The position numbers and the translations under genes were made by a program. A DNA stretch of 64,000 nucleotides from an uncultured Chlamydiae bacterium. GTDB lineage: Bacteria; Chlamydiota; Chlamydiia; Chlamydiales; JAJFMA01. This document shows, piece after piece, positions 1,849 through 8,084 of this stretch. The DNA is taken from the NCBI GenBank assembly GCA_963713615.1, contig CAVQMM010000001.1, positions 2,560,001 through 2,624,000 on the forward strand, written 5' to 3'. Position 1 is the stretch's first letter. Every line of letters starts with the position of its first letter. The notes under the pieces are model-generated. The model was given only the letters and a program-made list of their open reading frames with translations, had not been told where the DNA came from and ran no database searches.

Positions 1849-3852
1849 CTAACCCATGGTGAGCTCAAGCTGCTCATATTTCCGCAGTAGGTCGCGATAA
1901 TGTGCGGCATCCTCAAACCTCAACTCCTTGGATGCCGCCTTCATGAGCGCAGCATACTCCGCTATCTTGGACCTAATCTCTTCCGGAGTGATGTATGTGT
2001 GATGATGTTCCGCTGCAAACTTAACACCTCGTTCAGAAGTGTCGTATGACACTGCCTCGTCAAATTCAGCGATCAGCGGGGAAATATCACGCATTACACT
2101 CATCGGAGTGATGCCATGAACTTCATTGTAAGTCTGCTGTGCAGCACGTCGGCTATCGGTGATTTTGATGGTTTTGGCGATGGAATTGGTGATCTTGTCG
2201 GCATACATGATCACGCGCCCCTGAGCATTTCGAGCTGCGCGACCGCATGTCTGTACCAACGCAGTCTCACTACGCAGAAAGCCTTCTTTATCAGCATCTA
2301 AGATAGCTACCAACGAAACCTCGGGGATGTCGAGGCCTTCTCGTAGAAGGTTGATGCCCACAAGGACGTCGAATTCGCCTTTGCGGAGGTCTAGAATAAT
2401 CTGCATGCGCTCTACGGTATCGATGTCCGAGTGCAGGTACTTGGCCTTGATATGTAACTCCGTTAGGTAATTGGTCAAATCCTCAGCCAAACGCTTGGTC
2501 AGTGTGGTGACCAATACCCGCCCCCCTTTGCTGGTGTGGCGATGGATCTCATCGAGGCAATCATCCACCTGTCCGGAAGCGGGCCGAATCTCTATCGTCG
2601 GATCTAGTAAGCCTGTAGGACGCACAACCTGCTCAATGATTTCACCGCCAGCCTCCAAAATCTCCCAAGGGGCCGGGGTTGCTGATACATAGATCACCTG
2701 ACGAATCTTGGCATGCCACTCCTCAAACTTGAGCGGTCGGTTATCGAAAGCCGAAGGCAACCGCCACCCAAACTCCACTAGCGTTTGCTTACGAGCTCGA
2801 TCACCATTGTACATCGCCCGCACCTGCGGAACGGTTTGGTGCGACTCGTCCACAAACAGGAGAAAATCCTCCGGAAAATAGTCGAATAGGCACGGAGGCG
2901 CAGAGCCAGGAGCCCGACGGCTAAAGTGGCGTGAGTAGTTCTCAATACCTTTGCAAAAACCAATTTCGCGCATCATTTCGAGGTCATACATGGTCCGTTG
3001 ATGGATGCGTTCACGTTCTAAAATTTTCTGATTGTCTTCATAAAACTTAAGGCGCTCGGCGAGTTCCTCCTTGATGGTGATCTGAGCATGTTCCCGAACT
3101 TCTTCGGGGGTGACGTGGTGCGATCCGGGATAAATCGTGACCTCTTGGACGCGTTTGATGACCTTTCCGGTCAGGGGGTCGATCTCACTGATACGCTCAA
3201 CCTCATCGCCAAAGAATTCAATACGCAGAGCCATGTCATCTTCATAAGCTGGAAAGATGTCCAAAACATCGCCTCGAACCCGAAAGGTACCGCGATGGAA
3301 GTCGATATCATTGCGCTTGTATTGCAGTTCTACAAGATGCAACAGCAGCTCATCTCGACGATATTCCTGACCCATCACAAGGTTGAAGCGCATCTGTCGC
3401 CAATATTCCGGCATGCCCAAACCGTATATGCAGGACACCGAAGCAACGATGATAACGTCTGAGCGCTCCAGAAGAGATCGGGTGGCGCTAAGGCGCATCT
3501 TGTCGATCTTTTCATTGATCGCCATATCTTTTTCAATGAACGTGTCGGTACGTGGGATATAGGCTTCAGGCTGATAGTAGTCGTAGTAGGAGACAAAGTA
3601 CTCCACAGCGTTGTCAGGAAAGAAACCTTTGAATTCTTGATAAAGCTGTGCGGCCAAGGTTTTATTGTGGGCCATGACGAGGGTTGGACGCTGCACTTTG
3701 GAGATGATATTGGCCATGGTAAAGGTTTTACCAGAGCCAGTAACCCCCAAGAGAACCTGAGCTTTGCGGTTATCTAGAAGGCCCTGGGAGAGCTTCTCGA
3801 TAGCCTGTGGCTGATCACCTGCTGGTGCATAGTCTGACCGCAATAAAAACAT
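1849..3852 (-). CDS. uvrB: Excinuclease ABC subunit B
   Basis: [41 protein letters not shown]-terminal UVR motif. The start could instead be 3864. Confidence 0.98.
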
Positions 3853-3881
3853 AAATCTATCCATTGTAAAACAAAAAGTTC

Positions 3882-6301: not shown

Positions 6302-7537
6302 TTATGCTGGAATCCATCCCAGCTCCCGAGCAAGCTGCAACACCACCACCGCACTGGCAAAGAGTATGACGATAATAAGTGTCACCTTTCCTCCTGGCAC
6401 CAGTGGCTTACTGACGTAATCACGCCGGTAACGGCATACCCACACCATTAAGGCAGGAATAATACCAAATAGGATGACAGCACCAAAGGCCCCAGCATAG
6501 TTGAGGGCGGTAAGGAATACTCCCGGATAGGTAATACCGATAAGATAGGGGGGACCTAGTGTCAACAAACATAGCAAAGCACGGCCCTTACTGTCGCGAC
6601 GGATGTTGAGACCATCGGAAAGGAAGTCAACAAAGCTCAAGGCTACGCTAAGAAGGGAAGTAATGATAGCAAAAAAACCAAAATACTCGGCCAACGTCAC
6701 GACCCAGGCAGACCCTACAGCATTCCTTAGGGCGGAAGTAGCCATGTTACCTTGCTGAAGAGCCTGACGAAAACCGGCCTCTCCTTCTACCGGAACGATC
6801 CCCAGAATAATCCATTCCCAGACAAGGTAGATCACCAATGGGATACCGCTACCTAATAAAATAGCCGTTTTAAGACGACGCGGATGAGCGGTCCCAAGAT
6901 AATAAGTAATACTAGGGACTAGGTTGTGATAGCCGAATGAAATAATCATCGGAGGCACGACAAACCAGGCGGCATTCCAATCCACGTGCTTGAGGTAGTC
7001 GGTATGCACATGACTGGAGCCCATTGTTACTAGCCCCACATAGGTGATGATGAGTCCACACATAAGAACGCGATTGAAATAATCGACGCGCGAGGTCCCT
7101 GAGTAGATGAGGATGCCGAACAGTAGAACACAGATCAAACTACCCGTCCAAGGGGCCATGGTAAAGCCAAGCACCTCATGAGCCATGGTAGAGATAAGAC
7201 TGCCACTTCCCACCACATAAGCAAGCATCACGGAATAGAACAAAAAGAGAAAGAGAAGCCAGCTCAACACCTTGCCATAAATGCCTAGGGTGCGATCAGC
7301 CATGGTGACAATTCCGGCGATGTCACCGAAGATGATATTCACCTCGAGGAGTAACAGTCCTGTAGTCACCATAAATAGCCAGGAAAGCACAAACATCAGC
7401 ACAGATGGCTGAAAACCCGCCAACGCTGTAAGCACGGGCAGACCAAGCATTGCGGCGCCAATACAACATCCGGAAATGAGTAGGGCACTACCAAGGACGC
7501 TGCCTTGAAGGGGAGGCTGAGGGGTTAAAGTTTCCAT
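6302..7537 (-). CDS. tyrP: Aromatic amino acid permease (TyrP/Mtr family), second paralog
   Basis: GSALLISGCCIGAAMLGLP, SFGYHNLVP; tandem pair as in Chlamydia. Confidence 0.88.
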   Translation of the reverse strand: METLTPQPPLQGSVLGSALLISGCCIGAAMLGLPVLTALAGFQPSVLMFVLSWLFMVTTGLLLLEVNIIFGDIAGIVTMADRTLGIYGKVLSWLLFLFLFYSVMLAYVVGSGSLISTMAHEVLGFTMAPWTGSLICVLLFGILIYSGTSRVDYFNRVLMCGLIITYVGLVTMGSSHVHTDYLKHVDWNAAWFVVPPMIISFGYHNLVPSITYYLGTAHPRRLKTAILLGSGIPLVIYLVWEWIILGIVPVEGEAGFRQALQQGNMATSALRNAVGSAWVVTLAEYFGFFAIITSLLSVALSFVDFLSDGLNIRRDSKGRALLCLLTLGPPYLIGITYPGVFLTALNYAGAFGAVILFGIIPALMVWVCRYRRDYVSKPLVPGGKVTLIIVILFASAVVVLQLARELGWIPA

Positions 7538-7638
7538 ATGGGTTAACTCCTGGCATGCTGCCGAAAAAACTCAGGCGGCAGGGTTTCAATTTGGCTAAGG
7601 TCTGTTGAAAAAAAACAAGGTGGCAGAGGGCTGCAAGA

Positions 7639-7731
7639 TTAGGCGTAACAACGCCAACCCCAACCCAAACTAAATCGGACATGGGCAAGTGGAATAATAA
7701 CGAATGATGATGTACTTAAGCGCTGTGTCAT
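7639..7731 (-). CDS. Putative Trp/aromatic-sensing leader peptide (30 aa, MTQRLSTSSFVIIPLAHVRFSLGWGWRCYA)
   Basis: Hand translation. RBS-like AAGGT upstream; ends WGWRCYA; lies about 100 nt upstream of tyrP-tyrP-trpS, followed by C-rich tracts, small hairpins and U-runs. Confidence 0.6.
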   Translation of the reverse strand: MTQRLSTSSFVIIPLAHVRFSLGWGWRCYA

Positions 7732-7858
7732 TGAACTACCTTAAAGAAAAAGGATATCTCATAGACTCGCTTTTGGTCAAATACTGCTTGATGAAGATCA
7801 GAGGAATTTTGAGCCGTGACATATATATATGGTTCTTGTGAAGAATTGGGCTTTGGAA

Positions 7859-8084
7859 TCACAATAGTGTCTCGGCGCGTAGCGCTTTGGAGTGCGCGTC
7901 GCTCGCGACCGCTTTGGGTTTGGGCGAGCCTCTTGAATCACGCATCGTTCTATGGAGCCTCAAACCCCCACAATTACCCCTAGAGCGGAAGGTCATGTTT
8001 CGTGTAATGCCTAGTTCACCCAAATCCAAAGCGGTCGCGAGCGACACGCACTCCAAAGCACTACGCGCCGAGAAACGATTGTGA
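7859..8084. repeat. REP-doublet (REPIN-like) element, family B
   Basis: TCACAAT..CTCGGCGCG.AGCGCTTTGGAGTGCG...CGCACTCCAAAGC..CGCGCCGAG..CGATTGTGA inverted arms; near-identical to 49003-49228. Confidence 0.85.

Follow-up and report, generated by a model that had tools for sequence, protein, structure and literature searches.

On its minus strand, the window (the whole stretch of DNA that was analysed, 64,000 nucleotides from an uncultured Chlamydiae bacterium) carries two tandem tyrP-family permease genes followed by trpS and uvrB, and upstream of them a short open reading frame (uORF) containing Trp codons. The features are given below in the direction of transcription.

9851–8205, minus: thyX, farther upstream of the leader
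7751–7780, minus: predicted sigma66/70-type promoter, TTGACC-18-TATCCT, 9 of 12 hexamer matches
7739–7743, minus: SD-like TAAGG, 7 nt upstream of the leader ATG
7639–7731, minus: leader uORF of 30 aa with Trp residues 24 and 26, kept in relatives
7628–7666, minus: extended lineage stem GGGUUG...CAGCCC around both Trp codons and the stop, −20.5 kcal/mol
7654–7662, minus: both TGG codons (7662–7660 and 7656–7654), predicted stall site
7642–7655, minus: conserved core hairpin GGCGU/UGUU/ACGCC, from the last Trp codon to just 5' of the stop, with covariation across the family
7600–7627, minus: C/U-rich, G-poor tract including a U8 run (7615–7608), candidate Rho-loading or pause region
7558–7581, minus: CUGCCG/CGGCAG hairpin 5' of the RBS, without a U-tail, not conserved
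7551–7547, minus: tyrP RBS motif AGGAG
6302–7537, minus: tyrP-family aromatic amino acid permease 1, 411 aa, araaP 290 bits
5053–6279, minus: tyrP-family permease 2, 408 aa from ATG, araaP 318 bits
3964–5043, minus: trpS, tryptophanyl-tRNA synthetase, TIGR00233 302 bits against a cut-off of 177
1849–3864, minus: uvrB, 99 nt 3' of trpS, from the NCBIfam search

The trpS gene was the single match in the genome, the tyrS model reaching only 30 bits at this position. Both permeases scored below every substrate-specific NCBIfam cut-off, and no substrate was assigned to them by NCBIfam. It is possible that uvrB shares a transcript with tyrP–tyrP–trpS. A tandem tyrP cluster near uvrB has been described previously, with the neighbour called tyrS, and the accessible part of that paper makes no mention of a leader (PMC3937554). 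Promoter matches numbered three in 1.4 kb where 2.0 were expected, and the site at 7751–7780 is weak on its own and not above chance; similar hexamer pairs also precede the leader ATG of many relatives. A fuzzy TrpR operator pattern derived from the trpR promoter matched nothing near 7751–7780, and a strict pattern missed the trpR promoter itself.

Between thyX and the leader promoter lies a MITE-like element (7859–8084) whose inverted arms of 69 nt are 91% complementary and which has at least 17 other copies in the genome, at about 87–94% identity. Two DNA contigs from sequencing runs span part or all of the leader with no listed differences; they are silent on its function. Two further tyrP paralogues of the source genome have no comparable leader, though a repeat at one of them holds an ORF that contains Trp. 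At locus L215 (G001:C23), in another genome of the genus, a tyrP paralogue stands directly 5' of trpR–trpD–trpC.

The leader ORF and its conservation

The preliminary description had proposed a Trp leader peptide of 30 aa, ending FSLGWGWRCYA, before the permease genes. This ORF is present at 7731–7639 (minus strand), its stop lying 101 nt before tyrP–tyrP–trpS–uvrB, and on re-checking of the sequence every motif quoted along with it was found in its place: the G-rich Trp segment at 7665–7652, C-rich tracts at 7630–7619 and 7584–7574, and, before the tyrP RBS, the U8 run (7615–7608) and the CTGCCG/CGGCAG hairpin (7581–7558). The leader-peptide reading itself was supported by comparison: ORF and Trp codons are kept in 3 of 3 same-genus genomes and across at least 11 family codes, and the same element also stands before trp biosynthesis genes. 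A second ORF, which overlaps the leader in a different frame with its ATG at 7682 and extends into tyrP, was rejected, being absent from three of the four nearest relatives and matched in the fourth only by an unrelated short ORF. A Rfam scan of the window region returned three chance matches and no trp-leader, T-box or other leader family, and an NCBIfam search with the leader peptide returned no match.

The chance level of such uORFs was taken from 1657 crudely called genes of the source genome with an upstream gap of at least 100 nt, counting uORFs of 10–40 aa with Trp in the last 11 residues. On this definition an ATG-initiated Trp-tail uORF precedes 263 of the 1657 genes, and one with at least two Trp precedes 22; two of these 22 stand before Trp genes, namely the tyrP–tyrP–trpS leader and a leader before trpD.

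Among 29 other best tyrP loci, 12 have the leader, including all three from the same genus and one of three from other genomes of the same family. The wider set comprised 101 non-redundant chlamydial loci in which tyrP precedes trpS, 25 non-chlamydial trpS loci having been dropped. The gap is shorter than 100 nt, leaving no room for a leader, in 25 of the 101, and about 30 roomy loci are without one. A Trp-tail uORF was found before the first tyrP at 46 of the 76 loci with a gap of at least 100 nt, compared with 263 of 1657 background genes. Removal by eye of four candidates without a pyrimidine run (L042, L062, L086 and L094) left 42 leaders, 20 of which have at least two Trp, compared with 22 of 1657 background genes; these figures, like all cross-genome leader statistics given here, are inflated by related genomes. 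Three leaders missed by the cut-offs (L059, L147 and L162) were counted in the tree only, and L056 and L067 were omitted from the tree only, the second permease having been mistaken for the first. On the FastTree phylogeny of 97 first-permease proteins the leader label needs 28 changes, so either the leader is old with many losses or it has been regained many times; at least 15 of the changes are forced by strong branches, and the label is therefore not one clade of near-copies. The element before tyrP–tyrP–trpS is very likely a conserved Trp-sensing leader of some kind.

Two loci (L051 and L055) retain the Trp-hairpin motif with no open ATG frame into it, through decay or assembly error. At several others (L008, L019, L037, L039, L054, L077, L107 and more) the leader ATG lies 6–8 nt past the −10 hexamer, and many copies are probably leaderless mRNAs with the ATG close to the −10; the source-genome copy differs from these in having an SD. 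Outside the phylum, T-box-like motifs were seen by eye before the Chlamydia-like trpS of Anaerolineae (L093, L103 and L109), and the Chlamydia-like trpS of Armatimonadota appear leaderless, so that in both groups the same gene appears to be under different control.

Anatomy and placement of the leader family

Three parts are common to the copies: a pyrimidine coding run, a hairpin that takes in the Trp codon and lies over the stop, and a C-rich, G-poor tract. In the run 5' of the first Trp, the C/G ratio is 3.5 at −30 to −15 across the 42 leaders, and four-fold degenerate third positions hold G at 4 of 146 sites (5 of 118 in the trpR-linked leaders described below). The tract 3' of the hairpin has C/G ratios of 4.7 and 2.8, the 31 loci that have no leader giving about 1.2. 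The 5' arm of the hairpin starts in the last TGG, with the stop usually within or adjoining the loop or the 3' arm. In 41 of 42 leaders the predicted probability that the GG of this TGG pairs with sequence 3' of it exceeds 0.5; the mean is 0.95, compared with 0.79 when the downstream sequence was shuffled, and 29 of the 42 leaders exceed the 90th percentile. Next to TGG on its 3' side, 37 of the 42 leaders have C, and the pairs at +4 are G–C in 18 and C–G in 10. At least four Watson–Crick pairs are formed by a locus's own arms in 20 of 41 cases, against a mean of 8.4 (maximum 17) in 2000 swaps of arms between loci. A five-sequence family alignment held one compensatory pair only, equalled by 96 of 500 shuffles and not significant, and the full 216-nt leader of the source genome folded no better than its shuffles (z 0.72).

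The peptide itself is variable in length and spacing. The stop comes 0–9 codons after the last Trp (0–1 in 16 of 42 leaders), and the residue after this Trp is R in 17, P in 11, L in 6, Q in 3 and another in 5. A conserved arrest motif of the TnaC type (free-Trp binding with a Pro-stop stall) was not found among the 42 leaders. In the source genome the core hairpin (7655–7642) is nested in the extended stem (7666–7628), with the U8 run 12 nt farther on, and arms resembling the extended stem were read by eye in four relatives (G001–G004). A preset anatomy filter (hairpin plus G-poor, pyrimidine-rich flanks) was passed by 22 of the 46 family candidates and by one of 1657 genes on the main contig of the source genome, this one being the trpD leader; the tyrP–tyrP–trpS copy narrowly failed, the 30 nt that lead up to its first Trp codon containing 7 G where the limit was 5.

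The trpD leader belongs to a second locus of the source genome (G000:C1:1016493–1021370), arranged trpR–leader–trpD–trpC–trpF–trpB–trpA with no adjacent trpE or trpG. It ends WWRLTA 96 nt before trpD, is rich in Ser and Ile and has no Phe; that it starts inside the end of trpR suggests translational coupling to trpR. Across 71 trpR loci, a Trp-tail uORF follows trpR in 25, of which 22 were kept after L176, L201 and L228, which had no pyrimidine run, were removed by eye. Where a next gene was seen, it was trpD, trpB or a tyrP, or else encoded a probable ABC substrate-binding protein or a protein without an assigned name. By eye, we take the protein at L188 to be this probable ABC substrate-binding protein and that at L194 to be an unassigned protein with a flavin-binding-like motif; the two genes are candidate members of the Trp regulon. 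The peptide encoded at L171 is identical to the TrpL of C. trachomatis, and that at L175 nearly identical to the one of C. felis, as given in the accessible part of PMC3937554.

Proposed mode of action

The position of the element after trpR and before trpD, trpB, tyrP and the gene for the probable ABC protein favours induction by starvation, and its placement before biosynthetic genes points to Trp shortage, not excess, as the signal. During Trp shortage, a ribosome would stall at both TGG codons on the 5' side of the hairpin and, by covering the pyrimidine-rich RNA around it, would keep Rho off, allowing RNA polymerase to read on into the permease and TrpRS genes. When charged tRNA-Trp suffices, translation would finish within a few codons and the ribosome would be released; the hairpin, likely a polymerase pause signal, would then form again, and Rho, gaining access to the C-rich, G-poor RNA on either side of it, would end the transcript before tyrP. 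That the uORF is translated, that ribosomes stall on it, that Rho takes part and that shortage is the inducing condition are all things that we infer from these patterns. Because the stop is so near the Trp codon, the switch would more likely be between a ribosome present and one released than between two ribosome positions.

Rho was detected in 41 of the 42 leader-bearing genomes, including the source genome. C-rich, G-poor RNA in or beside the uORF occurs family-wide, the source copy being borderline on the upstream side. Against this reading, the excess of C over G fits a rut site without proving one, and rho is nearly universal among these genomes. We lean, if only slightly, towards Rho shielding by the stalled ribosome as the output of the leader, which is probably a Rho-dependent variant of leader-peptide attenuation, TrpL-like in its sensing and failing the classical terminator tests.

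The best surviving alternative, which we nevertheless consider unlikely, is translational attenuation, in which the pyrimidine-rich leader pairs with the Shine–Dalgarno region of tyrP, a stall frees it, and loss of mRNA is secondary polarity. Purine-repeat RBSs in several relatives could pair with the C/U tracts, and when the whole uORF was blocked in silico 19 of the 42 leaders showed RBS opening of more than 0.1 and 2 showed closing. With a realistic ribosome footprint, however, RBS opening rose by +0.048 where shuffling of the flanks gave +0.013 (p 0.22; nine leaders up and one down), and the source-genome copy moved the opposite way (−0.05).

Less likely still is intrinsic attenuation, classical or simplified, with the Trp hairpin or a stem to the U8 run acting as a factor-independent terminator that the stall prevents. 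Such a switch, built from the U8 run and the CTGCCG hairpin, was what the preliminary description had implied, and neither part is kept in close relatives. A U8 run does lie 3' of the stem in the source-genome copy, and a hairpin with a U-rich tail occurs in 5 of 42 relatives; at L171, the C. trachomatis TrpL, a 15-bp hairpin with U6 lies near a mapped 3' end. Against this, no intrinsic terminator was called in the tyrP–tyrP–trpS leader, 37 of the 42 leaders are without one, and the U8 run, not kept in the four nearest relatives, lies 12 nt beyond the stem, an adjoining stem costing 4.1 kcal/mol if forced. The Trp segment can pair with the two C-rich tracts, as had been proposed (duplexes of −13.7 and −12.8 kcal/mol), but these are neither its preferred nor its conserved partners; the arm next to it, ACGCC...CAGCCC, which spans the stop codon, is favoured instead. 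As a terminator, the proposed pairing with the distal C-rich tracts was rejected: it is absent from the 25 best folds and 4.1 kcal/mol worse. Blocking of the uORF in silico left only weak local hairpins, with no antiterminator and no terminator to oppose. Since a terminator-like hairpin with a U-run is present in only 5 of 42 leaders and absent from the source copy, the classical terminator/antiterminator reading is unsupported.

It is improbable that the ORF arose by chance across a conserved hairpin, or that the element is a TnaC-like sensor of free Trp inducing in excess: some Trp-tail uORF does precede 16% of background genes, the peptide is poorly conserved and its W-[RP] is largely explained by the need of the hairpin for C after TGG, but TGG is in frame with the ATG and near the stop across families, gaps in the coding part of a five-way alignment are mostly of 6 nt, codon use is frame-specific, and the occurrence of the element before trp synthesis genes disfavours induction by excess.

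Possible amino acid inputs, known systems and meaning

The tyrP–trpS leaders are also rich in Phe. Over the 10 codons that lead up to the first Trp, Phe occupies 167 of 405 positions in the 42 leaders where base composition predicts 99, and Leu occupies 20 where it predicts 79; Phe makes up 41% in frame compared with 21% and 28% in the other frames. The 22 trpR-linked leaders have no such excess (40 of 218 against 39.5 expected), and in four genomes with both leaders Phe is higher in the tyrP–trpS one (4:2, 5:3, 3:2 and 1:0). The source copy is Phe-poor, with one Phe in these 10 codons. Of the 42 leader genomes, 5 were found to have prephenate dehydratase, among them the source genome (G000:C1:1968909–1969442), and their leaders average 0.27 Phe compared with 0.43 (one-sided p 0.034), a comparison that is small (n = 5), uncorrected for kinship and includes one leader with 5 Phe in 10. 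We regard the chances of Phe co-sensing at tyrP–trpS in the family, though not in the source-genome copy, as evenly balanced; alternatively, the Phe excess is an effect of the peptide on ribosome speed. It is plausible, as the preliminary description held, that the tandem permeases carry Trp, and the excess of Phe codons across the family suggests that Phe is a substrate too. The full combination, in which a phylum-wide, terminator-less, Rho-dependent Trp attenuator includes the C. trachomatis TrpL as a divergent member, its two-input Phe/Trp copies before tyrP–tyrP–trpS mark importers of both amino acids, and the Phe input is relaxed where Phe is made, as in the source genome, is put forward only tentatively and is rather doubtful as a whole.

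Comparison with known systems draws on the accessible portions of the cited papers. Like E. coli trpL, the chlamydial leader is a short uORF before Trp genes with Trp codons near its end and inside a hairpin; derepression by stalling is likewise predicted, with TrpR acting alongside in the trpR-linked copies (PMC7755916). Unlike trpL, 37 of 42 chlamydial leaders have no terminator/antiterminator pair or U-tailed terminator, the stop is often 0–1 codons past Trp, and permeases and TrpRS are the genes controlled. The putative TrpL of C. trachomatis and C. felis share the pyrimidine-rich run and W(W)-[R/A/P] near the stop, and differ in being single annotations before trpB or trpD (PMC3937554, PMC7755916); the C. 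trachomatis copy diverges from the family in its 3-bp local stem and in flanks that are not G-poor. In tnaC, speFL and cruR, as proposed here, a ribosome stalled near the uORF stop masks rut RNA that is adjacent or intragenic, with no intrinsic terminator, but there the stall comes from a ligand binding to the nascent peptide or ribosome (PMC12360218), whereas the chlamydial trigger would be uncharged tRNA-Trp. The chlamydial leader further differs from tnaC in its opposite sign and in having no conserved arrest peptide that we could see. Leaders with Cys runs before actinobacterial cys operons also have the sensing codons near the stop, no terminator hairpin, and poly-pyrimidine tracts proposed as Rho sites; they concern another amino acid and phylum and have no conserved hairpin, unlike the covarying chlamydial hairpin that starts at the sensing codon (PMC1262725). 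No description of a chlamydial tyrP–trpS leader was found in a literature search whose reach stopped short of the Merino and Yanofsky lists, Lopatovskaya 2010 and supplements.

Cis-acting TrpL attenuation in Chlamydia is debated in print (PMC6504234, PMC7755916, accessible in part). In the portions available, C. trachomatis is said to lack TrpL attenuation, PASIFIC finding no terminator or antiterminator (PMC7755916 and a preprint), and the position of its Trp codons inside a hairpin is also cited against it (PMC7755916). Another study, as far as its accessible part goes, reports broad 3' ends in a 348-nt intergenic region, with means at 511,810, 511,889 and 511,986, and leaves attenuation open (PMC6504234). 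L171 (G069) shares this 348-nt gap; its Trp codons map to 511,870, 511,888 and 511,903, its stop ends at 511,911, and its 15-bp hairpin with U6 ends near 511,975. The coincidence of hairpin and 3' end is suggestive only, and the C. trachomatis copy may use an intrinsic terminator. Within the region 185–300 nt past the trpR stop of L171, the 3' ends with mean 511,889 fall at the TrpL Trp codons, as do promoter-less 5' ends with mode 511,898, in the available part of the same study (PMC6504234); ends at these codons could reflect cleavage at a stalled ribosome.

Chlamydial persistence is driven by tryptophan starvation, according to the accessible parts of PMC6504234 and PMC7755916. TrpL has been doubted mainly through failed terminator-based prediction and through its Trp codons lying in a hairpin, and dozens of conserved copies show that this layout is the normal one of the chlamydial leader family. 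The family offers, in stalling combined with Rho, a testable mechanism, and hints at the substrates of the tandem tyrP permease pair. A leader that senses uncharged tRNA and uses Rho for the readout would be a rarity, and this one may respond to two amino acids.
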